Numbered from the stretch's first letter, positions 2,594 through 56,240 are shown. The stretch: 64,000 bases of DNA from Minisyncoccota bacterium (GCA_036517255.1 DATDXE010000004.1:30543-94542); one strand, 5' to 3'. The notes: generated from the sequence alone by a model not told the origin. Numbers and translations: made by a program.

Positions 2594-2701
2594 TTTGCAT
2601 TTATTCGGACTTAGACTTTAAGGGTCCAAAAATAATGCACCATATTTTATTTAAATTTCCTTGCTCCGGGAGTAGGGATCGAACCTACGACCAATCGCTT
2701 A

Positions 2702-3261
2702 CATTTTGTCTTCTATTACTAGAAGTATGGACTATATCATCCCCATATATTCAAAATCGAACACTTAGGGGCGAGGCGCTTCGTACCAACAACATTGCTG
2801 GAACTACTCTCTTGCGAGATAGTCTCTACACCTTTCCCTTGATTACTCTCGGGACTTGGCTCGGGATTGCCCCTTAGGGGTTTCCCCGAATTCACCTCGT
2901 TTTTCAACCCAAATTTCTTCGGGAAGCTGCGTGATGCCGTCATGTACTTCCATATGACAATTTGCGCAAATCAAAACACATTTATCTATTTCTTTGCGTA
3001 TTTTTTCCCAAGATCGAGTTAAACCTCTTAAGGACAAGCCAAAATCTTTTTTAGCTGGATCCACATGATGAAAACTCAAAGCTCTTGAGCATTTATTGTA
3101 GCCACATATAATACACTTATTGCCTTTATAAGCTCTCGCCATTTCACGTAAATTTTTTCTTCTACGTTTAACAGCCATTCGCATATATTCAGCACGGTCG
3201 GCATAAGTTCTTTTTTCTTTCCTGGTATACATATTATAAGTATACCGCAGAACTTATCGAC
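2702..3261 (-). other. group I self-splicing intron in tRNA-Asn anticodon loop (between nt 35 and 36)
   Basis: 5' exon ends in U, intron ends in G (AAAAUG|); 3' part carries GUAGAGACUAUC (R-like) and GAUAUAGUCC (S-like) elements that can form P7; ORF in the 5' peripheral region. Confidence 0.75.
2843..3232 (-). CDS. intron-encoded HNH homing endonuclease
   Basis: 129 aa; CIICGYNKC...HHVDPAKK...CANCHMEVH (HNH His-Me finger with two CxxC pairs); starts 29 nt after the 5' splice site. Confidence 0.8.
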   Translation of the reverse strand: MYTRKEKRTYADRAEYMRMAVKRRRKNLREMARAYKGNKCIICGYNKCSRALSFHHVDPAKKDFGLSLRGLTRSWEKIRKEIDKCVLICANCHMEVHDGITQLPEEIWVEKRGEFGETPKGQSRAKSRE

Positions 3262-3454
3262 ACAGGCGATCGCTCTACCGCTGAGCTATCCCGGAGCATG
3301 AAAATCTAAAACATATTGAATTATCAACGAACCAAATCAGTTTATCAGAAAAAGGAGATGAGGCAAGATTTTTAGAGTTATGCACTTAGATACAGAAATG
3401 ATATTGACGCTATTTTATAAAGGAGTAACATTTTCCATCAGGAGGCAGTAAAGT

Positions 3455-9442: not shown

Positions 9443-10480
9443 ATGAAGAAATTTCTCTCTCCTAAAATTTTGATTCTCACTACTGTTATCCTGCTTGGAG
9501 GAGTACTTTTATATTGGAAGCAAAATTCGAACAAGGCAATCGGAAATTTGAATGTATACGAAGGTAAAACTACGATCACTCGGGCTGAAAAATTGGTAGA
9601 AGGTAGAACGGGTATAGAGGTAAAAAGGATGGATGGGGTCAAAATAAACACTGACGCAAGAGCTTCTATCGTATTGAAAAATGGTGGCCTCTTGCGCCTC
9701 GAATCAGGTTCGGAAGTGGAAATATTGGGAGAAGACAATTTCAAATTGAAGAGTGGTCGAATGTGGTCGAGAGTAGAACCATTATCAGAAAATGAGTCTT
9801 ACAGTGTCGAAACTCCGACTGCGGTCGCCACCGTGCGAGGCACTATTTTTAATGTTGATTATTTATTTAATATAAGCCAGCTCTATGTGGATAGCGGTTT
9901 GGTAAATATGGCTCTGCTCATGGGTACTCCTGAAGAAAAGAAAGGTAAAGAAACTTTGTCGGGAGAACTTTTCGTATTAAGAGACAATAATTTAAAAAAT
10001 GATTTTGCAAAGGGGCCAGTACCTGCACCGAAAGAATTCTATGATGATTGGATACAGTGGAATGTGGATGAAGATGCTAAAGCAGGCTTTACAGAATGGG
10101 CCCATCCTGCTGAAGAAGAAATCGTAGAAGCCGTTCCTATAAACATAGTAAATCCTCCCAAACAAGTAGAGAAAAAAATCACTTCCATATTCCTTTATGG
10201 AAATAAATCTAAAATAAAACAAGGCGAGGAGACTAGACTTCTGGTAAGAGCTAGTTATCCTGATGGCTCTGTGCAAGAAGTGCCATTTGCAAATTTGACT
10301 TGGATAAAAAGTGAAAAGTGGGGAAACATAACTTCCCCCGGCTATTTCGGGAGCAATACAGTGGGTACGACTACCATATCGGCCCAAATAGGTAACTTAG
10401 TTTCAAACAGAGTCACTGTCGTAATCGAAGCGAATCCTGTTGTTCCTCCTCCAAACCCAAATACATATTATGAACCGTAA
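9443..10480 (+). CDS. FecR-domain membrane-anchored protein
   Basis: N-terminal TM; TAVATVRGTIFNVDY FecR-like beta-sandwich signature; C-terminal Ig-like segment. Confidence 0.6.
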   Translation: MKKFLSPKILILTTVILLGGVLLYWKQNSNKAIGNLNVYEGKTTITRAEKLVEGRTGIEVKRMDGVKINTDARASIVLKNGGLLRLESGSEVEILGEDNFKLKSGRMWSRVEPLSENESYSVETPTAVATVRGTIFNVDYLFNISQLYVDSGLVNMALLMGTPEEKKGKETLSGELFVLRDNNLKNDFAKGPVPAPKEFYDDWIQWNVDEDAKAGFTEWAHPAEEEIVEAVPINIVNPPKQVEKKITSIFLYGNKSKIKQGEETRLLVRASYPDGSVQEVPFANLTWIKSEKWGNITSPGYFGSNTVGTTTISAQIGNLVSNRVTVVIEANPVVPPPNPNTYYEP

Positions 10481-12179
10481 CAAGTTTTACTTTTCTTTTG
10501 GATTCCTCACAATAGTGGTTCTTACTCTCATAAATTATTCTGGGGTATTTCAAAATTTTGAATATAGAGCTCTCGACATTTTCCGTTCAGCTCACTCAGC
10601 TCATCCCGATATCGTGATCGCCGCGATTGATAATAAGAGCATAGAAGAAATAGGTCGTTGGCCATGGAATCGAAAAGTGCACGCCGATTTTCTAAATGTT
10701 TTAGATTCCTATGGACCTCAAGTATTAGCTTTTGATATAAATTTTTCTGAAAAGCAAGATGACCTAAACGATAGTGCGTTCGCTTTTGCTATAGAAAATG
10801 CTTCTTTCCCAACAGTACTTACTACCCAAGCTATATTTACAAAAAATTCTGAAACTCCCCAATCATTTTTAAAACCAGTCATATTTTCGAAAAACACTGG
10901 CCACGTGAATGTTCCTGAGAGCGATGATGGTATTACCAGAAAATTTCCTGAATCTCTTGGGACAAAAGAAGAAACATTTCTACCATTTAGTTTCAAATTG
11001 GCAGAAATAGTGGGAGCAAATTTACCAAAAGAACAAAACCTCCTTATAGATTTCAGTGGCAAGGCTGGATCTTTCCAAACAATTTCATACAGCGATGTTT
11101 TAAATCGTAAAATAAAAAGTGAAGATTTGAAAGATAAAATAATTTTGGTGGGGGCGACCGCAAGCGACCTGCGCGATTACGTTTATGTCCCAGTAGCAGG
11201 TGAAATTATCTCCGGAGTCGAGTGGCATGCAAATGTTTTGGACAATATTCTCTTAAGTAGAGCTGTTGCTTATGCGCCAACTAAATACTATGTTCTGCTC
11301 GGCCTAATAATTTGGCTGATCATTTTGCTTTTACCCCTTTCAATAAAAACAAGTAATGTTTCAAAAATATTTACTGTACTAGTTATCGGGCTACCAATAG
11401 CAAGCCTAATACTGTGGCAAACCGAAAGTGTCGCCCTCCCCTTCTTCATCAATCTTGTCGGACTGATCCTAATATTCTTGATACGTTCTGGTTATAAATG
11501 GTACCAGGTTGAGATGGAAAAAAGGAAACTGCATAGGACTATCCAAAATAGATTTTCGCCTCAAGTGGTAGAAGCGATCATGCATGATCCGGAACTGCTG
11601 AAGCTCGGCGGAGTACGTAAAGAAGTAACGGTGCTCTTTTCCGATATCCGCAATTTCACCACCATTAGCGAATCAGTTGCTCCGGAAACTCTTTCCAAAT
11701 TACTGCACGAATATTTCACTGAAATGACGGAGGAGGTGCTCGCGACCGACGGCGTACTCGATAAATTCATAGGCGACGCTGTCATGGCTTTCTGGGGCGC
11801 GCCGATAGAGCAAAGTGACCAAGTTGATAGAGCGGTCAAAACAGGGCTTGGTATGCTGCGACGTCTTACCGCTCTACAAAATAAATGGAAAAAACAAGAT
11901 ATGCCTTTTATAGATATCGGCATCGGCATCCACACCGGCATTGCTACCGTCGGTAACATGGGTTCAGAAAAACGTTTCGATTACACTGTGATCGGTGACA
12001 CAGTCAACATAGCCTCTCGCCTTGAAGGTTTGAATAAGGAATACCAGACCCACTTCATTATATCCGAAGCCACTCTCCACAAAATTTCTCCTTCCCTGAA
12101 CATCCAATCAAAACCCCTCGGCGAAGCCCTCGTCAAAGGCAAAACCCAAGGTGTAAATATTTTTGAAGTTAGCGAATAA
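10470..12179 (+). CDS. CHASE2-sensor adenylate/guanylate cyclase
   Basis: ATG 10470 (MNRNKF) overlaps FecR stop; CHASE2 region, 3 TM, class III cyclase motifs VTVLFSDIRNFT..FIGDAVMAFWGAP..GIHTG..GDTVNIASRLE. Confidence 0.8.
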   Translation: MNRNKFYFSFGFLTIVVLTLINYSGVFQNFEYRALDIFRSAHSAHPDIVIAAIDNKSIEEIGRWPWNRKVHADFLNVLDSYGPQVLAFDINFSEKQDDLNDSAFAFAIENASFPTVLTTQAIFTKNSETPQSFLKPVIFSKNTGHVNVPESDDGITRKFPESLGTKEETFLPFSFKLAEIVGANLPKEQNLLIDFSGKAGSFQTISYSDVLNRKIKSEDLKDKIILVGATASDLRDYVYVPVAGEIISGVEWHANVLDNILLSRAVAYAPTKYYVLLGLIIWLIILLLPLSIKTSNVSKIFTVLVIGLPIASLILWQTESVALPFFINLVGLILIFLIRSGYKWYQVEMEKRKLHRTIQNRFSPQVVEAIMHDPELLKLGGVRKEVTVLFSDIRNFTTISESVAPETLSKLLHEYFTEMTEEVLATDGVLDKFIGDAVMAFWGAPIEQSDQVDRAVKTGLGMLRRLTALQNKWKKQDMPFIDIGIGIHTGIATVGNMGSEKRFDYTVIGDTVNIASRLEGLNKEYQTHFIISEATLHKISPSLNIQSKPLGEALVKGKTQGVNIFEVSE

Positions 12180-31963: not shown

Positions 31964-32915
31964 ATTTAGACACTCCATAATTGGAGAATGAAAAAATTTA
32001 AACATTTAAGCTATGAGGAAAGAGTAGCAATCTCTTTTCTTCAAGCGGAAGGTTGGAGCACAAGAGATATTGGTGAAAAACTTGGTCGTCATCATTCCTG
32101 CATTGCGTACGAATTGAAAAAGAAAGTTAAAGGCTTGTATGTAGCCAAAAAAGCTCACTACAAGTCATATTGGAGAAGATATTTGAGCAAGAAACAGTGT
32201 ATGAAAGTGGCTCTGGACAGAGAGCTGTCCAAATTCATTCCGGAAAAGCTCAAGGAAGGTTGGTCACCCGAAAGAATATCGGGGTACCTCAAGCTTCAAG
32301 GGAAAACCGTATCAACCAAAGCTGTATACAAGTTTGTGTACAGTCGTTGTTTAGAAAGATTTCTGTTCTGGAGAAAACATCACAAGAAAAGTGGTTGGAA
32401 GAAAAAGAGATATGGCAAAGCCAGTGATGGCAGAAAATATATTGAAGAAAGACCAGCGACACTCTGTTCTGGTCACTGGGAGGGAGACTTCATTGTCTCT
32501 TCTCACAATACTTGTTCTCTTTTGGTCTTGGTTGATCGATATTCCAGAAATACCATCATCAAGAAAATACCAAACAGAAAACACGCAGTTGTAATGCGTG
32601 CTTTCCAAGATTCCTTGCGTCATATGCCGATCAAGACACTGACATTAGACAATGATATATCATTTAACTGTTGGAAGAAACTGGAACAAATACTTAAGTG
32701 TTCTGTGTATTTTTGCCACCCGTATCACTCTTGGGAAAAGGGATTGGTTGAAAACACCAACAGGTGGATTAGATGTTTTGTGCCCAAAAGGAAAGATTTG
32801 AGAGAAGTCACAGACTTGGAGCTTCATTCAACCGAAGAGTTTTTAAACGAAATTCCACGCCAATGTCTTGGATTCAAAACAGCAAAAGAGGTATTATTAA
32901 TTAATCAAAGTGTCT
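31964..32915 (+). mobile_element. IS30-like insertion sequence (boundaries approximate)
   Basis: short inverted match TAGACACT (31964) / AGTGTCTA (32905) flanking the transposase; longer TIRs not resolved by eye. Confidence 0.35.
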
Positions 32916-32917
32916 AG
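31988..32917 (+). CDS. IS30 family transposase
   Basis: N-terminal HTH (LSYEERVAISFLQAEGWSTRDIGEKLG), DDE region HWEGDFIVSS..LDNDISF..E. Confidence 0.85.
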   Translation: MKKFKHLSYEERVAISFLQAEGWSTRDIGEKLGRHHSCIAYELKKKVKGLYVAKKAHYKSYWRRYLSKKQCMKVALDRELSKFIPEKLKEGWSPERISGYLKLQGKTVSTKAVYKFVYSRCLERFLFWRKHHKKSGWKKKRYGKASDGRKYIEERPATLCSGHWEGDFIVSSHNTCSLLVLVDRYSRNTIIKKIPNRKHAVVMRAFQDSLRHMPIKTLTLDNDISFNCWKKLEQILKCSVYFCHPYHSWEKGLVENTNRWIRCFVPKRKDLREVTDLELHSTEEFLNEIPRQCLGFKTAKEVLLINQSV

Positions 32918-34741: not shown

Positions 34742-37360
34742 TTACTCCCCTATAATACCTTTGAATCCTTTCTTTTCACCTTCTTCGGTTACTTTGTCTG
34801 TAAGAGAGCTCGGCTCTTCCACGACTAGAGTAGATATTTTTTCAAGCGAGGCATCATACGAATTATTTTTGATGGCTTCTTTATGAGCAGTGCCGTTACC
34901 GAAGAGGATCACGCCCATCACAATGAGAAAGACGATGACGAATGGCAGGATAGTACAGTAGTGAGCGAAGATAGCCGACAATGCTATAGCTACAATAAGA
35001 AAGATTGCGCTCCAGATAAGTTTCTTCCTGCGGATTTTCATTCTTTCCATTTCATCCCTAGCAGGACCGCCAGAGAATAGCGAAGCAAGGATATAGATGA
35101 CAGCAAGTACGATGAGGAAAACGATGGCACACTCTAACGTGTCAGAAAGACTTTCAGGAATAGAGAAAAGTGAGATAGCAGCATTCCTTAAAACATTAGT
35201 TCCTGCTATTTCACTTCCGTTTATAAAATCAGAATCTGTAGGGTTTTCTGATTCAGTAGAAGTACCGACTCCTATAGAGCCCGAAACATCAGGTATCACG
35301 CCTCCGTTCTCTTCTATATCTTGAATGAAGCTTCTGAAAGAATCGATTTCACTCTGATCTGAAGCAGAAAGGGGGTAGATAGTTTTACAGAATATTTCAT
35401 TTATTTTTTTCTTGGTAAGGATATACACATATCCAGTCGGAGCTGTGTGGCCCCACGGAGCAAGGATATCGTCAGAGTATTTATTCTGGAATCTCGACAC
35501 AGCATCGAAAGTAGCATCGTCAAAGTTAGCTGTGAAGGAAAGATTTTCTCCTTCAAAAGCATTGAGGAAAGATTGGAGTTTTAATACTTCAAGAGGATCA
35601 TTTTGCAAATCCTTTCTCAAATAATCACGCAAGTATGAACAGGTAGTAGCTCCTAGAACAGCACCGCCGCCTATGGTAGTAATGTCACGCCTATGACCAC
35701 CAAGGCCGCCGCCCCCACCTCCTCCGCCACCGCCATTACCCCCAGAATTATCAGTAGGAGGATTCGTAGGAGGAGTAGAAACAGGAGACACGATGACAGA
35801 CCTAGTTACAGAAGTAGAAAGGTTTCCAGAGTCAGTAACGGAATAGGTTACTTCATACGTACCGGCAACAGCTGTATTTACAGTAGTCGTAGTAGCAATT
35901 TCATCGGTCAAATTACCATCCTCAGTATCATTTGCAGTAGCACCTGGATCAGTGAAGGTATCACCTATTGTCAAATTCAAAGGATTGGCACCAATCAAAG
36001 TGATAATTGGTGGAGTGTTGACTGGAGGATTAACACTATTAGCAACATTCAAGGCAATACAATAATATGTATTACCATTCTGTGGATTCAAAACGTAATC
36101 ATAGTTGTCAAAATACAAAACATCCTGATTACAAAACAGTTCAGCACTTACAACATTAGTCTGTGCGTCATTATTTGCATATGGACCATAGAAAGGAATA
36201 TAGCCATTCTTTAATACTTCACGAATCCATACCTTGTCAGAACCTAGAGCCGCAGGAATATCGACTTGAGTTTTACCCTGACTATCAGTCAATCCAAAAG
36301 TAGTCCAGCCGCTACCCGCTGGTCCGACAAAAGATGAACCAGGATCAGTCACTGACTGGTAGCCCCACTCGAATTCCCATCCAGGCTGCAAGTGGCAAGA
36401 AGGATGAGAAGCGAGGAAATCGGAAGCAGTAGAAGCAGTTACATCAGGGCCTCCCACTCCCCAGTTCGGTAAATCGATTTCATTATTACAAACTATTTTT
36501 GTAGCGATAACGCGGAATGTCGTGGCAGGTTCCACAACTACAGTTCTATTAGCAGAGGCTGACGCCCCATCAGAATCAGTGACAGAATAACTAAGAACGT
36601 AATTTCCAGGAAGAGAAGTGTTGACCGAACCAGAAACAGTGATGGAAGAGGTCAAATTACCATCCTCAGTATCATTTGCAGTAGCACCTGGATCAGTGAA
36701 GGTATTACCAGCAATCACAGTAAAAGGATTGGCTCCCAAAAGAGTGAGCACCGGAGGATTGTTCACAGGTACTTCAGGACCACCGCCAGGATTCGTATTA
36801 CAGGTCACAGCCTCGGACTGTACGTTCAATTTAAAGAGTAGCCCGGCTGGATTTGATTGTGGAGTAGCCCCGTCCCAACCAAAATTTTTAACCTTAAAAG
36901 AAATGTTGTTTGAGCCTGTAGTCAAAACTGAACTGAGGTCATAACTATCTTTCTCCTCATCAAAATAATTTAACTCAGAATTATCTTGAGCAAATGGGTT
37001 TCCATTGACAGATATTTCGTAGCCATTGTCAGCGGCCACGATAAGGGAAGCTACAGTCGGAGTGCCGACTATATTAAAGGTGCGAGAAAAAGATGTTTCT
37101 TCATCGATAGTAGGGTTTTCAACAAGAACAGTCTTCCAAATCCAAGTAGCCCCAGGGATGCTTGCTGTCCAACGAGGGTTTGCAGAATATGTTGCTACAG
37201 CATTAGAATTATCAGAAAGAAGAGTGCTAGTATCACTCACTATTTCTAGATTACAAATAGCAAGTGCTTCGGAAGCACCTTCTTCAGCGAAGATAGAAAT
37301 AGGGCTCCCGATAAGTGTCACTACTACAAAAGCGGCTACAATGTTTTTGAATATATTCAT
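34742..37360 (-). CDS. large secreted/anchored surface protein with repeated Ig-like (DUF5011-type) domains, poly-Gly linker, PG-binding-like module and C-terminal TM helices
   Basis: signal peptide MNIFKNIVAAFVVVTLIGSPISIFA; two near-identical NPPVLTLLGANP..TFTDPGATANDTEDGNLT..YSVTDS repeats (56-nt identical DNA at 35906-35961 and 36650-36705); GGNGGGGGGGGGG. Confidence 0.7.
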   Translation of the reverse strand: MNIFKNIVAAFVVVTLIGSPISIFAEEGASEALAICNLEIVSDTSTLLSDNSNAVATYSANPRWTASIPGATWIWKTVLVENPTIDEETSFSRTFNIVGTPTVASLIVAADNGYEISVNGNPFAQDNSELNYFDEEKDSYDLSSVLTTGSNNISFKVKNFGWDGATPQSNPAGLLFKLNVQSEAVTCNTNPGGGPEVPVNNPPVLTLLGANPFTVIAGNTFTDPGATANDTEDGNLTSSITVSGSVNTSLPGNYVLSYSVTDSDGASASANRTVVVEPATTFRVIATKIVCNNEIDLPNWGVGGPDVTASTASDFLASHPSCHLQPGWEFEWGYQSVTDPGSSFVGPAGSGWTTFGLTDSQGKTQVDIPAALGSDKVWIREVLKNGYIPFYGPYANNDAQTNVVSAELFCNQDVLYFDNYDYVLNPQNGNTYYCIALNVANSVNPPVNTPPIITLIGANPLNLTIGDTFTDPGATANDTEDGNLTDEIATTTTVNTAVAGTYEVTYSVTDSGNLSTSVTRSVIVSPVSTPPTNPPTDNSGGNGGGGGGGGGGLGGHRRDITTIGGGAVLGATTCSYLRDYLRKDLQNDPLEVLKLQSFLNAFEGENLSFTANFDDATFDAVSRFQNKYSDDILAPWGHTAPTGYVYILTKKKINEIFCKTIYPLSASDQSEIDSFRSFIQDIEENGGVIPDVSGSIGVGTSTESENPTDSDFINGSEIAGTNVLRNAAISLFSIPESLSDTLECAIVFLIVLAVIYILASLFSGGPARDEMERMKIRRKKLIWSAIFLIVAIALSAIFAHYCTILPFVIVFLIVMGVILFGNGTAHKEAIKNNSYDASLEKISTLVVEEPSSLTDKVTEEGEKKGFKGIIGE

Positions 37361-37702
37361 GTTATTAATATCTCTAAATAATTTAATACCCCACAATTTA
37401 ATCTATTAACTTATCTCATGTATTAACATAATTGATAGAATATGTCAATAAACATACTAGGAAGTGTCAAGCGACCAAATGCTATTAAAGCCTTATTTAT
37501 CAACGTTTTTTAAAAAGGAGAAAAAATATTAAAATTTTGTCTTTTATAAATCCATATAATCCTAAAAAAGACTTACTTACTAGGTCCTATCAGATATAAA
37601 GGACAACTTACCTAAAAGACAAACTATGTCTTTTAGGTACAAAAGAGTCTATTTTTGCGTTTTTAGTCTTAAAGCTTATTATTAACAAGTAAATATATTG
37701 CT

Positions 37703-41613: not shown

Positions 41614-41686
41614 GCTGGGATAGCTCAGTTGGTAGAGCATTCCCCTGAAGAGGGAAGGGTCGCCGGTTCGACCCCGGCTCCCAGCA
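41614..41686 (+). tRNA. tRNA-Phe(GAA)
   Basis: GCTGGGA-TA-GCTC-AGTTGGTA-GAGC-A-TTCCC-CTGAAGA-GGGAA-GGGTC-GCCGG-TTCGACC-CCGGC-TCCCAGC-A. Confidence 0.9.
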
Positions 41687-41706
41687 CACAATTAAATATT
41701 GGAAAT

Positions 41707-41779
41707 CCGCTCATAGCTCAGCTGGTAGAGCAGCTCCCTCTTAAGGAGACGGTCCCAGGTTCGATTCCTGGTGAGCGGA
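41707..41779 (+). tRNA. tRNA-Lys(CUU)
   Basis: CCGCTCA-TA-GCTC-AGCTGGTA-GAGC-A-GCTCC-CTCTTAA-GGAGA-CGGTC-CCAGG-TTCGATT-CCTGG-TGAGCGG-A; C1:G72, one mismatch in anticodon stem. Confidence 0.8.
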
Positions 41780-41790
41780 CTGCGGATATT

Positions 41791-41871
41791 GGGCAGGTGG
41801 TGAAATGGTATACACGCCAGTTTTAGGAACTGGTGCCGCAAGGCATGGAGGTTCAAGTCCTCTCCTGCCCA
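41791..41871 (+). tRNA. tRNA-Leu(UAG)
   Basis: GGGCAGG..CCAGT-TTTAGGA-ACTGG, long variable arm TGCCGCAAGGCAT, GGAGG-TTCAAGT-CCTCT-CCTGCCC-A. Confidence 0.85.
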
Positions 41872-41911
41872 CAAAAGTTTGAAAAATAATCCGCATTTGG
41901 TATAATGTCAC

Positions 41912-42275
41912 AGGTTTTCATTCCAAACGATAGCTCTGCATTTTATATGCGGAGAGGAAAGTCCGAACACTCACTCTTTTACTAGAGAAGAGTAGCGGGT
42001 AACGCCCGTCGTCCGCGAGGATAGAGATGCGAACAGAGACGAGTCTCCAAAGTAGCTTGCATCGCAAGGTACAAAAAAAGGAGAGTGAAACGGCAAAATT
42101 CTTACTTGAGTGCAAGGCCGTACACGAAATTTTATAGTCCCCGCCTCACGGCGGATCGTTAAAATTTCGTGAGTGCCGCTTGAGTCCTTGAGTAATCAAG
42201 GGCCTAGATAAATTATCGTTACGCTTACCAACGAGGTAGGTGGAACAGAATTCGGCTTATAAGAATGAAAATGAG
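41912..42275 (+). ncRNA. rnpB: RNase P RNA (bacterial type A, reduced)
   Basis: GGAAAGTCCGAACAC (CR-I/P4 5' strand) and ACAGAATTCGGCTTA (CR-V/P4 3' strand) with compensatory CGAAC/UUCGG change relative to E. coli CGGGC/CCCGG; GAGTGAAACGGC (CR-II-like); P1 GGUUUUCAUUC/GAAUGAAAAU; TGgTATAAT promoter at 41899-41906. Confidence 0.8.
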
Positions 42276-42418: not shown

Positions 42419-43594
42419 ATGCCTGCTGCTACTACTGCCCAAAGTAACGATCAACGGACGGCCTCCTCACAGACGCCGCCCCAAACAACCGTAGTCGACA
42501 GTCCGAAACCAAGACCACGCTATACTCTACTCTCGACTTGCCCCACCGGCTGGCTCGCGCTAGTCGTACGTGGAGAAGACCTGATCAGGGTGCTCCACTC
42601 GGTTCCCAAACACATCGTCAATGACGATTTCGAATTCATCCCTGATGATACCACCGCCGAAGAAGGAGACGATGTATTGAGCTTGCGGAACCTCACAGGA
42701 CGCGAGTTCATTGGATTTCCGTTCCTACGCCTAACCGGCCTCCACCGGTTCAATCATCAGTGGAGCCGGTTCTGGCCGAAATTGGACGCGGATGGGGCAC
42801 CGGTATACGAGGTGCAAGCCCACGAACGGCAGACTCTGACGTTCGCGCCATTCATCTCACAGTACCCCCTGGTATTTCCTGGGGTCGAAGTGATCGGTAG
42901 CGCGGTTGCCCCAGCGGCCGACAAAGCGGCAGGAGCCGAAACGGACCCAACATCGCAGAGGCCGCTCATACCAGTCACCTTCACGTTGACAATTCGGCTG
43001 AAGATGATACGCCCTCGGATGGCGCTCATGGAAAACACAGACGCCTTGGGCAACGTGCTGATTCCAAAAATCCGCGCCTTCCTCAAAGCCTACGCGGCCC
43101 AGAGAAGTTACGATGAATTGTTCCGCAGTTCGGGACAGTTTTCAGTAGTCACGGTCACCCAGGAATTTCGGAATTACTTCTTGGCGACAGGCAACGCGCC
43201 TGGAACAATCAGGGGTGAGATACTCGATCACACTGGGTACCAGCTCGACGACATCCAAGTTGTCGACATCAAACCCCTCGGAGAATACGAGCAAACGTTG
43301 CTCAATCTGGCCAAGGCCCACGTCGACGCCCAAAAGGCATATGTCGACGCCACGGGAAAACGCCGCGCGCGAGTTGAGGAAAGCCAAGGCGAAGCTACAG
43401 CAATAACCAACGTAGCTGCTGCCGATGCTCTTCGTATTCAGCAAACAATCATCGCGGCTGCAGGCGGTGCTGGACCAAATGCAATCGCGGCTCTGATCTG
43501 GGACATGATCAGGCAGTCGAATCTCACAACCTTGGGAGGTCAAGGACTCGGCATCATTGTCGATCCGAACAGCGGACGGCCAATGAATCCGTAA
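42419..43594 (+). CDS. SPFH/band-7-like domain protein lacking an N-terminal TM (G+C-rich cassette)
   Basis: 391 aa; C-terminal region GYQLDDIQVVDIKPLGEYEQTLLNLAKAHVDAQKAYVDATGKRRARVEESQGEATAI...NAIAALIWDMIRQ resembles SPFH domain end plus Ala/Glu-rich coiled coil of HflK/C-flotillin proteins. Confidence 0.45.
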   Translation: MPAATTAQSNDQRTASSQTPPQTTVVDSPKPRPRYTLLSTCPTGWLALVVRGEDLIRVLHSVPKHIVNDDFEFIPDDTTAEEGDDVLSLRNLTGREFIGFPFLRLTGLHRFNHQWSRFWPKLDADGAPVYEVQAHERQTLTFAPFISQYPLVFPGVEVIGSAVAPAADKAAGAETDPTSQRPLIPVTFTLTIRLKMIRPRMALMENTDALGNVLIPKIRAFLKAYAAQRSYDELFRSSGQFSVVTVTQEFRNYFLATGNAPGTIRGEILDHTGYQLDDIQVVDIKPLGEYEQTLLNLAKAHVDAQKAYVDATGKRRARVEESQGEATAITNVAAADALRIQQTIIAAAGGAGPNAIAALIWDMIRQSNLTTLGGQGLGIIVDPNSGRPMNP

Positions 43595-43750: not shown

Positions 43751-45145
43751 ATGACGCCTATTGGAAACAGCAGCAATAGCAACCATGCCCCACAACGCGG
43801 AGAGGGGTTCACATACGGTCGAGGGACACCAAACCCCGCCCAAACCAATAACGAAGAGTGGTGGAAGAGATTCCGAGATATGTTTCGAAGGGCAACCTTC
43901 TGGGGCAAGATCGGACTGCTCTTCCAGCTTTTCCGAGCCTTTCGGGCTTGGGTAAAGAAGGAATGGTGGGGCATCGCCCTCGACACGGCGGTGGTAACAA
44001 CCATCCTGATTCTTGCTATGGGTTTAGCGACCCTCGGCATAAAGGACGGGAGTTCGGCGTTCACAACGGTAGCCATAAAGGGAGTCCTCATCGCGCTTGG
44101 CGCAGGAGCAGTGCTCTTCGGGGTATTACTCTTCCGCCGGCACCTCAAGTGGTGGCACCTTGGAATCGTGGCGACAATCATCGTCATGATTTTCTTCCTG
44201 CCATTCCACAGGATCGCACTCTGGATCCTCCATCCGATCCCCATGATATGGATCGTCGCAAGCCTCATGGCAATCGGCATTCACTTCTTCGGACCGGAAA
44301 AAGGTCTGCAGTGGAAGTGGAGAAAAAAATTGAAGCATCTTCCTAAGTGGAGGCTGAGGTTGCTGCCATTCGCGGCAGCAATCATTGCGACCATCGTGTA
44401 CCTCGCATTTAGCAACTTCGCCTTATCGGATTTGGGGTTGTTAGTACTGGTCGTGGTGGGGTTGGTAGTTCTCATCGTTATCGCAAGGACAATCGTAAAG
44501 AAAGATGAGAAAAACAAGGTCTGGCCCATCGCGGGCAAGATCGTGCTGATGCTCGTCGGGCTCGTGGTGTTCAACTACATCGCGCTCGCGACCTGGTCAT
44601 GGTGGAGGGTCCTCCGTCAGTACGAGGAGGTCTTCTGGGGAGTAAACGCCGCTCTGTTTGTGGCAATGCTCCTCACCCTGGTTACCACCGGGAAGGACGA
44701 CAACAAGAAAACCCATCCGCTTGCGATCACGGGCATCAAGGTGTTCATGTTCCTTGCGATAGTGGGGTTTGCGTCGGCTCTATACAACTTCGCCGTGGCG
44801 CACAGCCTCGACGAAGAAAAGAAAGTCGCCATGAACTCAACCAAGCTCGTGACGGCCCCTCCTAAGGGAGAAAACGATGATTGGAGCGATCCAATCAAAG
44901 TTCCAAAAGGAGTGAGCCTACGATTCCAAGCCAAAGACGGGGAGAACTATTACTCCGTCAAAAATGAGAAAGGGGAAGAGAAGCAGTACAACCCGCAAGG
45001 GCAAAGCTGTTTCGACACCGCAGGCACCGCAATGCTAGACGCGGAGCAGTGCCTCGGCGACTCAGAGATCATCTGGTTCCAGTCAGGGACCGACGAATCG
45101 AAGGAGATGATCGTAGAGTTCCTACCTTACGTCTCCAGAGAGTAG
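43751..45145 (+). CDS. polytopic membrane protein (about 10 TM) with ~100 aa C-terminal soluble domain (G+C-rich cassette)
   Basis: TGcTATAAT extended -10 at 43687-43695, GGAGA RBS; Trp/Arg-rich N-terminus then repeated hydrophobic helices; C-terminal domain with two Cys. Confidence 0.5.
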   Translation: MTPIGNSSNSNHAPQRGEGFTYGRGTPNPAQTNNEEWWKRFRDMFRRATFWGKIGLLFQLFRAFRAWVKKEWWGIALDTAVVTTILILAMGLATLGIKDGSSAFTTVAIKGVLIALGAGAVLFGVLLFRRHLKWWHLGIVATIIVMIFFLPFHRIALWILHPIPMIWIVASLMAIGIHFFGPEKGLQWKWRKKLKHLPKWRLRLLPFAAAIIATIVYLAFSNFALSDLGLLVLVVVGLVVLIVIARTIVKKDEKNKVWPIAGKIVLMLVGLVVFNYIALATWSWWRVLRQYEEVFWGVNAALFVAMLLTLVTTGKDDNKKTHPLAITGIKVFMFLAIVGFASALYNFAVAHSLDEEKKVAMNSTKLVTAPPKGENDDWSDPIKVPKGVSLRFQAKDGENYYSVKNEKGEEKQYNPQGQSCFDTAGTAMLDAEQCLGDSEIIWFQSGTDESKEMIVEFLPYVSRE

Positions 45146-45172
45146 TATTTCCCTCCGTATAAGAAAAAAAAC

Positions 45173-45208
45173 CTGCCCCCTCAAAGTTTAGAGGGGGCAG
45201 ATTTGTTT
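45173..45208 (+). terminator. rho-independent terminator
   Basis: CTGCCCCCTC-aaagttta-GAGGGGGCAG then ATTTGTTTAT. Confidence 0.65.
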
Positions 45209-45244: not shown

Positions 45245-45517
45245 CTATCTCGGAATGATACCCCCAGTTTGGTTTGGAATACCGAAAGTATTGAGAACGA
45301 AGTTTACGATGCCGTAGACGCTGAACATGATGAACATGCCGACTATACCATAAACGATACTCTTCTTGCCCTCTTCCCTTTTAGTATCATCGTCAGATGA
45401 AGCGATGAATTTGGCCACTCCGAAGAAGAATACGGCGGTCGCCACCACAAACCCGAGTATAATAACAGGGTTCAGGATAAACTCATTTATCTTGGCGAGG
45501 AACTGGCCGACTGTCAT
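45245..45517 (-). CDS. small two-TM protein, paralog 1 of tandem family (VirB2/TrbC-pilin-like topology)
   Basis: TM1-short K/E loop-TM2; shares layout with six upstream paralogs. Confidence 0.5.
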   Translation of the reverse strand: MTVGQFLAKINEFILNPVIILGFVVATAVFFFGVAKFIASSDDDTKREEGKKSIVYGIVGMFIMFSVYGIVNFVLNTFGIPNQTGGIIPR

Positions 45518-45523
45518 CTAACT

Positions 45524-45880
45524 TTATCTAGGGATAAGTGGACCGACCTGAGGACCAGCATCTTGAGTTATACCTATAGCTCTACCGAGAAATCCGACAA
45601 GGCCCCAAACTGCTGCCATAACGAAGAGAGCGACAATTCCCCATATCATTTTATTTCTTCCTTCTTCTAATTTAGCAGCGTCACCTGAAGCTAAGATGTA
45701 TTGTGCAAGACCCCAGAAGAAATAGAGCAAAGCAAGAGCGAAGACTATTGGGATGAGTAAGTTTATAATCCTACCGATCGGAGTGACTATGTTAGTTTCT
45801 ATATTTTGAAGCTGAGCGCTTGCCATAATTGGCAAGAGAAACGATACTCCTACGATTAAAGCTTTTTTCATAATTTTCAT
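45524..45880 (-). CDS. small two-TM protein, paralog 2 (signal peptide + LLIPIVFALALLYFFWGLAQYI...MIWGIVALFVMAAVWG)
   Basis: signal peptide ending ASAQ; core motif shared almost verbatim with 46002-46349. Confidence 0.55.
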   Translation of the reverse strand: MKIMKKALIVGVSFLLPIMASAQLQNIETNIVTPIGRIINLLIPIVFALALLYFFWGLAQYILASGDAAKLEEGRNKMIWGIVALFVMAAVWGLVGFLGRAIGITQDAGPQVGPLIPR

Positions 45881-46001
45881 TTAATTTTACTGAAACCTAA
45901 TAATTTATAATGACCAAATTTACGCTCTCAATTTTAGCACATATTAACTCTTTTGTAACTTAATATGTGAATAGTTGAGAGAATTGTAACTAAAGATTAA
46001 T

Positions 46002-46349
46002 CTATTGACCACCACTGCCAAATCCAGGTACAGGTATTGCGCTATTATCTGTTATCTTAAATTCCGTTTGTATAAACCTCACCAATCCCCAAACCGATGC
46101 CATCACAAATAAAGCTACTACTCCCCACACCATCTTATTCCTTCCCTCTTCCAATTTACTAGCATCACCTGATGCTAGAATATACTGGGCAAGACCCCAG
46201 AAGAAGAAAAGGAGGGCTAACGCAAAAACTATAGGAATAAGGAGGTTCACGAGAGTCGAACCTTGTCGTACGATACCAGTGGTCTGAGTAAGTTGAGCAC
46301 TTGCAAAAAGAGGTAATAAAAGAGAGAGGCTAATAAATATTTTTTTCAT
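46002..46349 (-). CDS. small two-TM protein, paralog 3
   Basis: MKKIFISLSLLLPLFASA signal; LLIPIVFALALLFFFWGLAQYILASGDASKLEEGRNKMVWGVVALFVMASVWG. Confidence 0.55.
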   Translation of the reverse strand: MKKIFISLSLLLPLFASAQLTQTTGIVRQGSTLVNLLIPIVFALALLFFFWGLAQYILASGDASKLEEGRNKMVWGVVALFVMASVWGLVRFIQTEFKITDNSAIPVPGFGSGGQ

Positions 46350-46372
46350 AATTTTGTAAGTACTTATAATAA

Positions 46373-46648
46373 TTACCTTACTTGGGGCCTTACCATACTT
46401 GTCGGCGATAGATCTATCTCGCTTCTTATAAATTTAATTATACCCCACACTGAAGTAACGACAAACAAAGCTACTACTCCCCACACCATTACTCTCTTAC
46501 CCTCTTCAACCGCTTTTTCGCTACCAGAATTTTGGATATATTTGGCCATACCCCAGAAAAAATATAGTAGGCACAAGGCAAAAGCGAGAGGAATGAGAAG
46601 ATTAGTGATGATTCCGTATGAAGCTTGGATCAATTCTTTTAAGTCCAT
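46373..46648 (-). CDS. small two-TM protein, paralog 4 (no signal peptide)
   Basis: LLIPLAFALCLLYFFWGMAKYIQNSGSEKAVEEGKRVMVWGVVALFVVTSVWG. Confidence 0.5.
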   Translation of the reverse strand: MDLKELIQASYGIITNLLIPLAFALCLLYFFWGMAKYIQNSGSEKAVEEGKRVMVWGVVALFVVTSVWGIIKFIRSEIDLSPTSMVRPQVR

Positions 46649-46658
46649 TTAATTAAAA

Positions 46659-46940
46659 TTACTGGCGTTCAGGTAACTGAGGAATGATGACTCCGCCTCC
46701 AAATTCAAATTCAGTTCGCAAGAAAGAAATTATGCCCCAGATAGTAAAGATGACGAAAAGACCGACCACTCCCCAAATCAAAATGCCTTTCTTCTTCTGC
46801 ATATCGGTATCGCTTCCGGTAGAACGGATAAAACCTGCGACACCCCAAACAAATAACAGAAATGCGATCGCCACGATAAGAGGGATGGCGGCTCCGCCTA
46901 AATCTATAAATTTATTTACTAGTTGAGTGAAATTTGTCAT
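46659..46940 (-). CDS. small two-TM protein, paralog 5
   Basis: AIPLIVAIAFLLFVWGVAGFIRSTGSD..KKKGILIWGVVGLFVIFTIWG. Confidence 0.5.
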   Translation of the reverse strand: MTNFTQLVNKFIDLGGAAIPLIVAIAFLLFVWGVAGFIRSTGSDTDMQKKKGILIWGVVGLFVIFTIWGIISFLRTEFEFGGGVIIPQLPERQ

Positions 46941-46964
46941 ATACTAGAACTGCGTTAACTTGCG

Positions 46965-47420
46965 TTAACCCCCAAGTTGGGTCACGGTACCTCTGATAAC
47001 GGTAGCCAAGACCCGAGCTCCGAGAAGTACCGCCGCTCCTATCACCGCATAAAGAATGGCTTGATGAGCAGTTTTTATTTTATCAGGCTTACCTTGAGCG
47101 GTGACGTAAAGGAAACCTGAGTAGATGATCATGACAACGACCACCGTAGCCCCTATAGGTACCACAACATCTTTTATGATGAGTTCTATCAGGGCTGGGA
47201 TATCATTGGTATTGTTTTTTAGAGGGTTTGGTATCTGTATCCTATAATTCACCTGCTGAGGTGGGTTGCCTGTACCACCCACTCCACCAGGATTGCCTGT
47301 GCCGCCAGCACCAGATTGAGCAGAAACAAATAATACAGGAAATAAAAATACTGTCGGCAAGAAGGAGTATATTAGAAATTTTTTAAAAGATGAAGAGTTC
47401 ATGCCCTGATTATACATCAT
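46965..47420 (-). CDS. small two-TM protein, paralog 6 (signal peptide + Gly/Pro-rich ectodomain)
   Basis: GAGGTGNPGGVGGTGNP then two C-terminal TM with K-containing loop. Confidence 0.45.
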   Translation of the reverse strand: MMYNQGMNSSSFKKFLIYSFLPTVFLFPVLFVSAQSGAGGTGNPGGVGGTGNPPQQVNYRIQIPNPLKNNTNDIPALIELIIKDVVVPIGATVVVVMIIYSGFLYVTAQGKPDKIKTAHQAILYAVIGAAVLLGARVLATVIRGTVTQLGG

Positions 47421-47435
47421 AGTTACTTGCTACAA

Positions 47436-47882
47436 CTACCTGTTGTTTAGTTCTATAAATTGGTCGCCATATCCATCCTCTAGGAATACATTGACGATGG
47501 TCCTCACTATGAGCCACGCAGAGAGAATGATAATAAAGCCGAGCAAAACTTTGCCCAACATTTTTTTTGCTTCCGACTTTTTATCCACTACAGCCGTAGT
47601 CATCAGGATGAAGCCGGCCCAGGAGAAGGTAATGACGGAAATTGGAAAGGAAATAATAACAAGCCAATTGAGTAAATTTTGAACTAAATAGAGCAGGTCG
47701 TCGAAATTACACTCCTCATCTTTCCCAGAAACTATGCCGTCACCATCATTATCAAAACCGCACGGTATGAATCGGCCCGTATCCCCTTCTTCCCCTTGAG
47801 CCAGAACACCAAGAGGAATACAAAAAGTACCAACGAGCATAATCAGTAATATAATTTTTGTAAAATTTCTAATTTTTCGCAT
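47436..47882 (-). CDS. small two-TM protein, paralog 7 (signal peptide + Cys/Asp-rich ectodomain)
   Basis: CGFDNDGDGIVSGKDEEC (DxDxDG-like) then TM1-KKSEAKK loop-TM2. Confidence 0.45.
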   Translation of the reverse strand: MRKIRNFTKIILLIMLVGTFCIPLGVLAQGEEGDTGRFIPCGFDNDGDGIVSGKDEECNFDDLLYLVQNLLNWLVIISFPISVITFSWAGFILMTTAVVDKKSEAKKMLGKVLLGFIIILSAWLIVRTIVNVFLEDGYGDQFIELNNR

Positions 47883-47897
47883 GATTTTCGTATCAGA

Positions 47898-49187
47898 TTA
47901 TTTGAAGAGCTCTGTTATTTCCCTACTAGCCTTCACTACTGCCGCCGAAGTGCGCTCGCGACCGCTTGTAATACTCTCTATCATGTTAGCAAATATTTTT
48001 GCTGTAGCAGTAGGCTCAGGATCAAGCCAAGCCTTGGACCGGAGTGCACTTTCGTAGAAAACTGCCTGGTATGCGTCAAGAGCTTTAGTTCCGAGTAAGT
48101 CGCGCCGAGCAGGGGGGACACCGAGAGCTTCGCTTATAGCCAGTGCTCCTTCACGACTTGAAAGGATAGAAGCGACGCCAAAGGCGGCATTTGCATTCTT
48201 AGAGCCACGGGAAATAGCAAAACCATAAAACTTGCCGTAGGAAACGTTGTTACCAGAATCTTTAGAGGTGGGCACTGAAGAAACATCGAAATTTAAATTA
48301 GGATTTTTCAGCTGGATCAGAGCTATCTCACTTGCAAAACCGAAATAGAGAGCCATATCCCCAGAAAGAAAATAAGTTTGGGAAAGAGGCATCGATCTAT
48401 TCCAAGAATAATAAGGTTTAACCGGATTTGAAAATTCAGTGTAGAAATTGACAGCGGCTTCTCCAGGGATGACTGGTTTTTCAAATGAATCTGCCATAAC
48501 AGAACGAGTATCATCACCAAATCTCTGGACGATAGGTGTACCAGCCTGCATCATCAAATTCGAAATGATAGCTTTGGCGTTTGATACATTATTATACTCA
48601 CCAAAAGAAACTAAGGACTTTTGAATATTCAGTGCTCCATCTTTTTTGGATATAAGCCCAGCGAGAGAATAGAATTCATCCCAATATTTAGGAGGGCTAG
48701 TCAGCTTAGCATCGGTGAAAACTTTTCTACTCCAATACATAACAAGTGGATCGACAATCACGGGAAGAGCTACTATCCCCGTCGGGTCAAGATAAATTTC
48801 GGATCCTTCTATAAAAGAGTCCTTGAACATCCTCTCAGAGAAAGCGTCGTATGGAATTAGAGTAATCTTATTTTTCTGCTTCACTATTTTATCGTGAGGC
48901 AGAAGAAATAGATCAGGGCCATTTCCTGAAGCAAGAGCCTCCACGTACTCATCGTCAAAAAGAGCTTCTTCTTTATAAGAATAACTTATTTTATATGCTT
49001 CGTTATTATAGAGAGAAGTTTTTGAAATAATACTTTGAAAAACTTCTGGATTCACATTGCCCCAGATACTCACTTCTGCCTGCTCTACTCCACCACCTTG
49101 ATATTTAGAAAATATTATGACGCTTACTATAATAAGGATACCAAAAACTCCTAGAATAATAACCTGAAACTTAGACATATTTCCCAT
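47898..49187 (-). CDS. extracellular solute-binding protein (ABC-type, family 1-like), membrane anchored
   Basis: N-terminal anchor helix; overall alpha/beta SBP-like pattern; assignment by general resemblance only. Confidence 0.5.
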   Translation of the reverse strand: MGNMSKFQVIILGVFGILIIVSVIIFSKYQGGGVEQAEVSIWGNVNPEVFQSIISKTSLYNNEAYKISYSYKEEALFDDEYVEALASGNGPDLFLLPHDKIVKQKNKITLIPYDAFSERMFKDSFIEGSEIYLDPTGIVALPVIVDPLVMYWSRKVFTDAKLTSPPKYWDEFYSLAGLISKKDGALNIQKSLVSFGEYNNVSNAKAIISNLMMQAGTPIVQRFGDDTRSVMADSFEKPVIPGEAAVNFYTEFSNPVKPYYSWNRSMPLSQTYFLSGDMALYFGFASEIALIQLKNPNLNFDVSSVPTSKDSGNNVSYGKFYGFAISRGSKNANAAFGVASILSSREGALAISEALGVPPARRDLLGTKALDAYQAVFYESALRSKAWLDPEPTATAKIFANMIESITSGRERTSAAVVKASREITELFK

Positions 49188-49199
49188 AACTTTATTTTA

Positions 49200-49727
49200 T
49201 CACGCTTTTAGCGCTACGAAACCATAGTGATGATCGCCAGCGTCGATTGATTTCTCGATCGAAAAGCCCGCTCCACAAAAAAGGGACTTGGCTCTCTCTT
49301 CCGTCACCACTTCATCCTTATGTGGGCCAAGGCCAGCAAAAGAATCAAGCCAATCGACCACCAGCACTCTGCCGCCAGACTTTAATATCCTTTCTATCTC
49401 TTTTGCAAAACTTTCTTTGTTCTCGACCTGAAAAAGAATGTTCGAAGCTATAACCACATCGATGATTCCCTCTTTTATTTTTGTACCTCCATCCTTTTCT
49501 ATATCGCCCCAAATCACTTCCACATTTGAAAGTTCATTTTTTTCAGCTAACTTCTTGACTGTCTCTACCAATTCTTTCTGCACATCTACTCCAAAAACCC
49601 TACCTTCTTCACCTACAATTTTAGCTGCTTCCAAAGCATAAAAACCGCTGCCGACTCCAAGATCAGCCACACGCATCCCTTTAGAAAGCCCGAGTTGTTC
49701 TAAATTAGATTTAGGATTACTAAACAT
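49200..49727 (-). CDS. class I SAM-dependent methyltransferase
   Basis: VADLGVGSGFYALEAA (motif I), VFGVDV (motif II), VIASNIL. Confidence 0.7.
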   Translation of the reverse strand: MFSNPKSNLEQLGLSKGMRVADLGVGSGFYALEAAKIVGEEGRVFGVDVQKELVETVKKLAEKNELSNVEVIWGDIEKDGGTKIKEGIIDVVIASNILFQVENKESFAKEIERILKSGGRVLVVDWLDSFAGLGPHKDEVVTEERAKSLFCGAGFSIEKSIDAGDHHYGFVALKA

Positions 49728-55655: not shown

Positions 55656-56240
55656 ATGCAGGAAAATTCAGATAGAAAAGAGAAAGAGCTAGAAAAGGCC
55701 ACAGGAGAAGGCAAAAAGGAAGGAGTTGGAGAAATACTGAAATTCGTTCTGATCGTGGCCATAATAGTAATCCCATTTCGTCTTTTTATAGCCCAACCCT
55801 ATATTGTAGAAGGAGCATCAATGGATCCAACATTCAAAGACGGCGATTACCTCATCGTGGATCAGATATCGACTCATTTCCAAGAATTAAAAAGAGGTGA
55901 TGTCGTCATCATGAGGTATCCGAACGATCCTTCAAAATTTTTTATAAAAAGAGTGATCGGCCTACCGGAGGAAACCGTTTCTATTTCCAAAGGAAAAGTT
56001 TATATAAAAAACAGTGAGGGTACAGAAAGGGTAGCTCTGGATGAAAAATATATAGTCTTTGAAAGAGAAGAAGATTTTGAAGCTACTTTAAAAAAAAGTG
56101 AATATTTTGTCATGGGCGACAACAGAGCGGGTTCTTCCGATTCTAGAGTATGGGGACCACTGCCTTCTGAAAACATTGTAGGCAGGCCAATATTAAGATT
56201 GCTACCGTTACAACATATTAAATTCCTGCCCGGACAATAA
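55656..56240 (+). CDS. lepB: signal peptidase I
   Basis: GASMDPTF (Ser box), RGDVVIM, KRVIGLPEE (Lys box), GDNRAGSSDSR. Confidence 0.85.
   Translation: MQENSDRKEKELEKATGEGKKEGVGEILKFVLIVAIIVIPFRLFIAQPYIVEGASMDPTFKDGDYLIVDQISTHFQELKRGDVVIMRYPNDPSKFFIKRVIGLPEETVSISKGKVYIKNSEGTERVALDEKYIVFEREEDFEATLKKSEYFVMGDNRAGSSDSRVWGPLPSENIVGRPILRLLPLQHIKFLPGQ

Follow-up and report, generated by a model that had tools for sequence, protein, structure and literature searches.

An array of seven VirB2-like pilin genes follows a solute-binding protein gene in a Minisyncoccota bacterium

Patescibacteria make up a large share of bacterial diversity, and no type IV secretion system (T4SS) other than theirs is known to be required for growth (PMC11665869, PMC12857230). 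In Ca. Southlakia epibionticum, the T4SS cluster SEML1_0006-0019, which includes a predicted pilin series, was found by transposon sequencing (Tn-seq) to be essential for epibiotic growth (Wang et al., Cell 2023; PMC10633639). Six divergent VirB2-like pilins are described for the same organism in a 2025 review, which also points to the potential for pili in a monoderm (PMC12857230). Such pilins were surveyed by Quinonero-Coronel et al. (Microb Genom 2025; PMC12102498), who screened 3,035 Patescibacteria genomes using the CONJScan profiles together with PF04956 and PF18895. Of the VirB4-positive assemblies, 1,948 were reported to contain VirB2-like pilins, and 383 assemblies held a total of 441 arrays with 2-11 pilin genes each, an array being at least two pilin genes in tandem or with one non-pilin gene between them. 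Identity within arrays averaged 25% with a maximum of 54%, arrays were most abundant in Microgenomatia and Saccharimonadia, and the authors suggested that the paralogues might help adaptation to different host strains. Here we analyze seven pilin-like genes, pil1 to pil7, that follow a gene for a membrane-anchored solute-binding protein (SBP) in a 64,000-nucleotide (nt) stretch of a Minisyncoccota bacterium (GCA_036517255.1, DATDXE010000004.1:30543-94542). This whole stretch is referred to as the window, and all positions are counted from its first letter. The seven proteins are probably differentiated VirB2-like pilin subunits used by a T4SS that is encoded elsewhere in the genome.

With seven genes in tandem, and its closest relatives in Zambryskibacteria/Paceibacteria metagenome-assembled genomes (MAGs), the locus is an array in the sense of the survey. 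It shares with the published Patescibacteria arrays the phylum, the family PF18895, and the arrangement of small, divergent two-helix proteins in tandem on the same strand. The copy number of seven compares with six in Ca. Southlakia epibionticum and 2-11 in the survey. Unlike these arrays, that of Ca. Southlakia epibionticum included, the present one has no virB4 cluster alongside, and is instead attached to an SBP gene near gyrA; neither a solute-binding protein nor gyrA is mentioned in PMC12102498 as array context. It is also found in Paceibacteria rather than in the two classes richest in surveyed arrays, and its highest paralogue identity (66%) exceeds the survey maximum. The initial annotation had called the array unusual and possibly a novel envelope system. 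Because Patescibacteria VirB2-like arrays have been published, including the 441 comparable arrays of the survey and the six-pilin series of Ca. Southlakia epibionticum, this kind of feature is already known and that description is not supported.

Other described systems are more distant. VirB2/TrbC pilins (VirB2 of the T-pilus, TraM of pKM101, TraA of the F-pilus) are alike in their small size, two hydrophobic helices and short charged loop, and four of the seven proteins resemble them in a signal peptide-like N-terminus. They differ from the present proteins in the lack here of any VirB5, VirB7, VirB9 or VirB10 context, in the presence of seven paralogues instead of one major pilin, and in the monoderm-type host. 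Divergent VirB2 copies stand side by side in the T4SS loci of Bartonella and Anaplasma phagocytophilum, which, as cited in PMC12102498, are read as antigenic or host-range variation; the copies described here are, by comparison, positionally orthologous in about 80 species and invariant among samples. The Mbov_0395 family (NF045849) resembles them as a small two-helix T4SS-associated protein of wall-less/monoderm bacteria, but is a single-copy gene inside an integrative and conjugative element (ICE), whereas the array is chromosomal.

The seven genes and their protein family

The genes are seven consecutive open reading frames (ORFs) on the minus strand at 45245-47882, directly 3' of the SBP_bac_1 gene at 47898-49187. 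The ORF list of the window reproduced exactly the coordinates of the initial annotation, which had described seven minus-strand genes of 90-151 amino acids (aa) beside an SBP-like gene. They were numbered by window coordinate, so that pil7 is nearest to the SBP gene and pil1 furthest from it. The protein encoded by pil7 (47436-47882, 148 aa) combines a VLA↓Q site, a Cys...Cys ectodomain with a DNDGDG insert and the two-helix core, and that of pil6 (46965-47420, 151 aa) a VSA↓Q site, a Gly/Pro-rich ectodomain, an NP motif and the pilin core. The proteins of pil5 (46659-46940, 93 aa) and pil4 (46373-46648, 91 aa) consist of the pilin core only, without a signal peptide. In pil3 (46002-46349, 115 aa) and pil2 (45524-45880, 118 aa) the core is preceded by a signal peptide-like N-terminus with an ASA↓Q site, and the last gene, pil1 (45245-45517, 90 aa), again encodes the core only. 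Intergenic gaps within the array are 6-24 nt, the single exception being the 121 nt between pil3 and pil2, and the gap between the SBP gene and pil7 is 15 nt.

All seven proteins reached at least the gathering score of PF18895 (T4SS_pilin; 26.6 bits in Pfam), with E-values from 4e-7 to 1e-11 and scores of 40.0 (pil1), 45.0 (pil2), 43.8 (pil3), 38.9 (pil4), 34.3 (pil5), 30.6 (pil6) and 42.1 bits (pil7). Since each protein passes PF18895 independently, and position orthologues are present in about 80 species, the signal from the seven-gene family is far above chance. A homologue search with pil2 gave 239 proteins, and every one among the matches listed carries PF18895; those that are named come from Patescibacteria/Paceibacterota MAGs. 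The corresponding search with pil7 returned 4 proteins. A profile search of the sequences in the PDB placed TraM, the pilin of pKM101 (8cw4), first, but its E-value of 0.099 is too weak for this to serve as a test.

The topology proposed in the initial annotation, that is an optional signal peptide or ectodomain followed by a first transmembrane helix, a K/E-rich loop and a second transmembrane helix, was borne out by hydropathy and by an AlphaFold model of pil2. Two strongly hydrophobic segments with a short K/E/R-rich loop between them are present in all seven proteins. The pil2 model (AF2, from 45 homologues) is a helical hairpin with helices at residues 3-63 and 68-101 and a predicted local distance difference test (pLDDT) of 87-95 in the core, and F54, G57, G81 and G93 are invariant in the pil2 alignment. 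The signal peptide-like N-termini of pil2, pil3, pil6 and pil7 were recognized by eye and hydropathy only. In pil1, pil4 and pil5, which have no signal peptide, the first helix begins about 14 residues after the start.

Pairwise comparison gave a mean local identity of about 33% among the seven paralogues. The highest value was found between pil2 and pil3 (66%), and pil4 shares 55% with either of these. The five-copy core that had been described as almost verbatim is thus close to that only in pil2, pil3 and pil4 (55-66%); pil1 and pil5 show 34-42% local identity to the remaining core copies. The two outer proteins, pil6 and pil7, are 14-29% identical to all others.

The C-terminal tails of pil1, pil2 and pil5 (window 45245-46940) are alike (GGIIPR, GPLIPR and GGVIIPQLPERQ), and the penultimate proline of pil2 is kept in about 90% of 61 orthologues. 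These shared tails may mark a site of C-terminal processing or recognition.

Conservation among relatives and between samples

The closest relatives of the SBP, with 59-60% identity, are Candidatus Zambryskibacteria/Paceibacteria MAGs. In a protein search for SBP-pilin links outside the gyrA block, the listing covered the closest 120 of 3598 SBP homologues, all at least 57% identical. From 440 species-level relatives the best 80 SBP-encoding loci were taken and L001 was added, giving 81 loci, and the relatives' ORFs were scanned with a hidden Markov model (HMM) made from the seven proteins of the window and 40 homologues. Pilin ORFs follow the SBP gene directly and on the same strand in 78 of the 81 loci, and the three exceptions end at the SBP gene. 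The arrangement is also seen in a complete genome of 742,714 bp (OZ246398.1), where S1, Lactamase_B_3, GyrA, the methyltransferase and the SBP (429 aa) come in this order and are followed by seven PF18895 genes. Full arrays range from 5 to 8 genes, and most of them have 6 or 7.

By best-hit assignment, the order of the genes is fixed: arrays open with the pil7 type, continue with the pil6 type and end with the pil1 type, while the number of pil5/4/3/2-type genes in the middle varies. The first position is taken by pil7 in nearly all of the 78 related loci, and, where no contig end truncates the array, the last gene almost always matches pil1 best. In the closest relatives, pil5-type orthologues occupy the third position. 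Only the pil7 and pil6 types follow the SBP gene in four loci (L055, L069, L077 and L081, among them the complete Campbellbacteria genome CP011215.1), despite the presence of downstream DNA. Because these four relatives hold just those two genes after the SBP gene, SBP-pil7-pil6 may be the core that is conserved, and the other copies may lie elsewhere in these genomes or be missing.

The individual positions differ in what they conserve. The best-conserved position is pil2, which has the best-conserved core of the set and whose AxA↓Q site is conserved among the orthologues. In pil7, about 90% of 77 orthologues keep two cysteines, the loop between which varies in length, and about 10-20% have the acidic insert. 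The DxDxDG-like stretch that had been noticed in this protein is indeed present as DNDGDG, but it is a lineage-specific insertion between the conserved cysteines and not a conserved motif. Orthologues of pil6 have in common the NP motif after a variable Gly/Pro-rich segment. The ectodomains of both outer proteins differ in length and sequence from species to species.

Contigs of the same organism from seven samples were 99.9-100% identical over the locus and contained seven genes in all cases; neither copy-number nor sequence variation was found among them. The orthology of the positions, in order, indicates that the duplications are old and that each position has been maintained individually. 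Since the positions are orthologous and also invariant among samples, the array looks, by sequence comparison, like a fixed set of distinct parts and not like an antigenic-variation cassette. A reading of the array as degenerate duplications, which the initial annotation had kept in reserve, is at odds with its collinear, position-by-position conservation in 78 relatives and its location in a housekeeping region.

For two relatives the HMM finds 3 (L072) and 4 (L033) pilin ORFs before the contig end where Table S3 of PMC12102498 gives one each, and this SBP-linked Paceibacteria type of array was therefore probably under-counted in the published survey.

The solute-binding protein and the surroundings of the array

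The SBP (47898-49187, minus strand, 429 aa) has an N-terminal hydrophobic anchor and matches PF01547 (58.8 bits) and PF13416 (SBP_bac_8, 51 bits). Its nearest solved relatives are maltodextrin/oligosaccharide-binding proteins, at a distance (E 2.8e-7). It therefore resembles MalE/UgpB-like carbohydrate SBPs, both in its SBP_bac_1/SBP_bac_8 match and in these relatives, but differs from them in having a transmembrane anchor instead of a lipobox, no adjacent permease or ATPase gene, and pilin-like genes after it. No gene for an ATP-binding cassette (ABC) permease or ATPase was found beside the SBP gene, either in the window or in the related loci. Directly upstream, at a distance of 12 nt, is a gene for a class I S-adenosylmethionine (SAM) methyltransferase (49200-49727, minus strand, 175 aa; Pfam Methyltransf_31, 81.8 bits), which may form one operon with the SBP and pilin genes. 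The same methyltransferase gene lies between gyrA and the SBP gene in most of the more distant relatives, and not in the closest group (L002-L025). The neighbourhood is collinear across relatives, with S1, Lactamase_B_3 and gyrA on one side, and an SPFH/Band 7 protein with a polytopic membrane protein, RbfA and IF-2 on the other. The SBP may be a functional partner of the pilin-like proteins, but because the whole neighbourhood is collinear, the adjacency of their genes is by itself weak evidence of a partnership.

The 121-nt gap before pil2 (45881-46001, minus strand) contains a promoter-like site, nested inverted repeats and a GGTCATT motif. The promoter-like site, GTTACA-17-TGcTAAAAT at 45959-45931 on the minus strand, has a TG extension, and the fold of the gap, with its inverted repeats, has an energy of -20.3 kcal/mol (z = -2.29). 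Among 62 related arrays, 51 likewise have their widest gap ahead of the penultimate gene, which is the pil2 orthologue, with a median of 102 nt compared with 11 nt for the other gaps. The motif GGTC[GAT]TT lies some 40 nt ahead of the start codon in 26 of 63 orthologous gaps, compared with a background frequency of 0.02 per 100 nt, and the orthologous gaps also share a TATAAT-like box. Across the window as a whole the motif TGGTCRTT is not enriched, and its significance comes only from the recurrence in orthologous gaps. From these sequence features we infer a putative internal promoter with a 5' untranslated region (UTR) that would drive pil2 and pil1. A strong bidirectional intrinsic terminator hairpin at 45169-45204, on both strands, has a 14-bp stem with 8 G-C pairs and a T run on the minus strand, and 10 pairs in its plus-strand version. 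Both the pilin operon and the SPFH/membrane-protein pair that converges on it end at this hairpin.

The pair consists of X391 (42419-43594, plus strand), a weak SPFH/Band 7 match, and TM464 (43751-45145, plus strand), a polytopic membrane protein with a C-terminal soluble domain; both converge on the pilin operon. They have a GC content of 0.54-0.56 and a GC content at third codon positions (GC3) of 0.61-0.69, compared with 0.34-0.41 in neighbouring genes. A pair of an SPFH and a polytopic membrane protein holds the same convergent position in about 55 related loci, to which the window copies are 24-35% identical. It looks as if a copy acquired from a donor of higher GC had taken the place of a conserved gene pair here; a foreign insertion disrupting the locus was rejected, as an equivalent convergent pair is conserved in about 55 loci.

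Overall, the content of the window is that of an ordinary chromosome from a bacterium with a reduced genome, with genes for GroEL, RNase J, FtsA, FtsZ, TsaD, a class I aminoacyl-tRNA synthetase and GyrA, and further for S1, Pth, signal peptidase I, a HisRS-like protein, BipA and Ddl. A group I intron (RF00028 in Rfam, 76.6 bits, 2709-2997) divides a tRNA gene at about 2662-3297 (minus strand) into a 5' half (3297-3262) and a 3' half (2700-2662). ARAGORN missed this tRNA gene in the intact sequence and called tRNA-Thr(UGU) once the exons had been joined. Within the intron, a 129-aa ORF (2843-3232) has Cys/His motifs that by eye resemble an HNH homing endonuclease, with no Pfam family on record. 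At 41614-42275 (plus strand), clustered genes for tRNA-Phe, tRNA-Lys and tRNA-Leu stand directly before that for RNase P RNA (class A, 141.8 bits). An IS30-like transposase gene (31988-32917, plus strand) stands among housekeeping genes, with an HTH_38 match and an rve integrase core match, the latter just under its Pfam cut-off. The 884-aa protein encoded at 34742-37396 (minus strand), a candidate surface adhesin, has Bact_surface_Ig-like repeats; its homologues are encoded beside TsaD upstream of gyrA in several relatives. At 9443-12179 (plus strand), a FecR-domain protein gene comes before, and overlaps, that of a CHASE2-sensor adenylate/guanylate cyclase. The two make up a cyclic-nucleotide signalling pair, although the genome is very small. 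Finally, a branched-chain-amino-acid-type ABC transporter locus occupies 59-64 kb and continues past the window end (L089, 1-13307). It has seven Peripla_BP_6 genes, four of them strictly tandem, a 23S_rRNA_IVP gene between two permease genes, and a PhdYeFM antitoxin gene inside the locus.

Possible role of the array

If the seven proteins are subunits of a T4SS encoded elsewhere, they would insert in the cytoplasmic membrane with the charged loop inside, and the four that bear an AxA↓Q site would be trimmed by signal peptidase I, the gene of which is at 55656-56240. The array would then provide a pool of different subunits, none of which could replace another, and from these an MPF-FATA-type T4SS (VirB4/TrsD/VirB3/VirB6) encoded elsewhere would build a structure that resembles a pilus or lines a channel. 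As the most conserved member, with a conserved promoter-like gap before its gene, pil2 would be the main structural subunit. The ectodomain proteins pil7 and pil6, first after the SBP, could be specialised subunits for the tip, the base or host contact. Such a structure might serve host-cell contact or exchange, as has been proposed for the essential T4SS of Saccharibacteria.

Several results weigh against this reading. The VirB2/TrbC-type assignment made in the initial annotation stands at the family level, where all seven proteins match PF18895, but it does not extend to PF04956 (TrbC/VirB2), which matched only pil6 (22.7 bits) and pil7 (20.4 bits), both under the gathering score of 27.9. 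All seven proteins match NF045849, the NCBIfam model of a Mycoplasma ICE pilin-like protein, at 17.2-33.5 bits, under its cut-off of 40 bits. Three of the seven are without a signal peptide, unlike classical VirB2 propilins, and in a Foldseek comparison with the PDB the pil2 model matched nothing better than helical hairpins (best E = 1.3), a fold too generic for a specific match. A filament of PF18895 proteins is reported in none of PMC12102498, PMC10633639 and PMC12857230. As the initial annotation had stated, no VirB4 or VirD4 ATPase is encoded within the window (ORFs of at least 500 aa), and this extends to about 9-10 kb past both ends, the flanks having been read on contigs of the same organism; nor was a recognised VirB6 found in the 64-kb window or in these flanks. 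In favour of the reading, besides the PF18895 matches and the weak matches just given, six relatives from the locus set are in the dataset of PMC12102498, and VirB4 is listed for five of them, including Campbellbacteria CP011215.1 (Table S1). In GCA_000996025.1 (locus L072), Table S3 of the same paper gives the type IV coupling protein (T4CP) as gene 136, a PF18895 pilin as gene 156 and VirB4, TrsD and VirB3 as genes 160-162, with one further VirB2 match, gene 409, flagged as not near virB4. The T4SS core of this genome thus lies apart from the array and has a PF18895 pilin of its own beside it, which implies that the array may not be needed for that machine.

These last observations also bear on a different explanation, in which the SBP and the hairpin proteins form a membrane assembly of their own, for instance a platform or pore of oligomerised hairpin proteins that works with the surface-exposed sugar-type SBP to capture or import host-derived compounds, and are related to pilins by descent only. 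It would account for the constancy with which pil7 and pil6 directly follow the SBP gene across the 78 loci, even in the four that have no other pilin types there, as well as for the missing ABC permease and ATPase genes, the three members without signal peptide, and the relative whose T4SS core is elsewhere and has its own pilin. The adjacency to the SBP, however, may be frozen gene order in a collinear neighbourhood. SBP_bac_1 proteins normally pair with MalFG-type permeases, and these could be encoded elsewhere. PF18895/VirB2-like proteins that work in the absence of a VirB4 machine are not known to us, and independence from a T4SS appears unlikely to us on balance. We regard as improbable a more distinct apparatus that draws on both ideas: a heteromeric VirB2-like filament or conduit of fixed paralogues, physically coupled to the surface sugar-type SBP and capturing or importing host compounds with or without the T4SS encoded elsewhere. 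If it were true, the structure would be a nutrient-acquisition pilus and not a conjugation or effector pilus.

The divergence of the paralogues, the variable ectodomains of pil6 and pil7 between species and the differing number of middle copies (5-8 genes in most full arrays) could also be taken to indicate a variation cassette, an idea raised in PMC12102498, in which recently duplicated pilin genes diversify against host or phage recognition or for a switch of host range. The copies are nevertheless old and individually maintained, being orthologous by position over about 80 species, their transmembrane cores are clearly constrained, and the seven samples, at 99.9-100% identity, show no change in copy number. 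Because strain-level variation is lacking, we down-weighted this explanation and regard it as improbable. Small two-helix membrane proteins in tandem also occur in bacteriocin/immunity and holin loci, and the initial annotation had accordingly allowed for a membrane-active toxin/immunity family. That the seven are membrane-active toxins, holin-like or bacteriocin immunity proteins or decaying duplicates, unrelated to secretion, is nonetheless very improbable. All of them pass PF18895, and no toxin, protease or ABC-exporter partner was found nearby in the window scans. A scan of pil2, pil6, pil7, X391 and TM464 against PHROGs was uninformative: pil2 and pil6 had no match, and that of pil7, to a family of unknown function, was only marginal (E 0.0069). 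The collinear, position-wise conservation in 78 relatives, the housekeeping context and the absence of strain variability also disfavour this idea.

Our preferred explanation is thus one of differentiated pilin subunits used by a T4SS encoded elsewhere. The locus adds detail to a known kind of system and not a new kind: linkage to an SBP, positional orthology, an internal promoter-like gap and detachment from virB4. In many species of Paceibacteria, six to eight pilin-like paralogues are kept as a fixed and ordered operon, detached from the virB4 cluster and always joined to an SBP. Their ordered conservation speaks for distinct roles of the paralogues in a structure, not for antigenic variation, and makes the SBP a concrete candidate partner.

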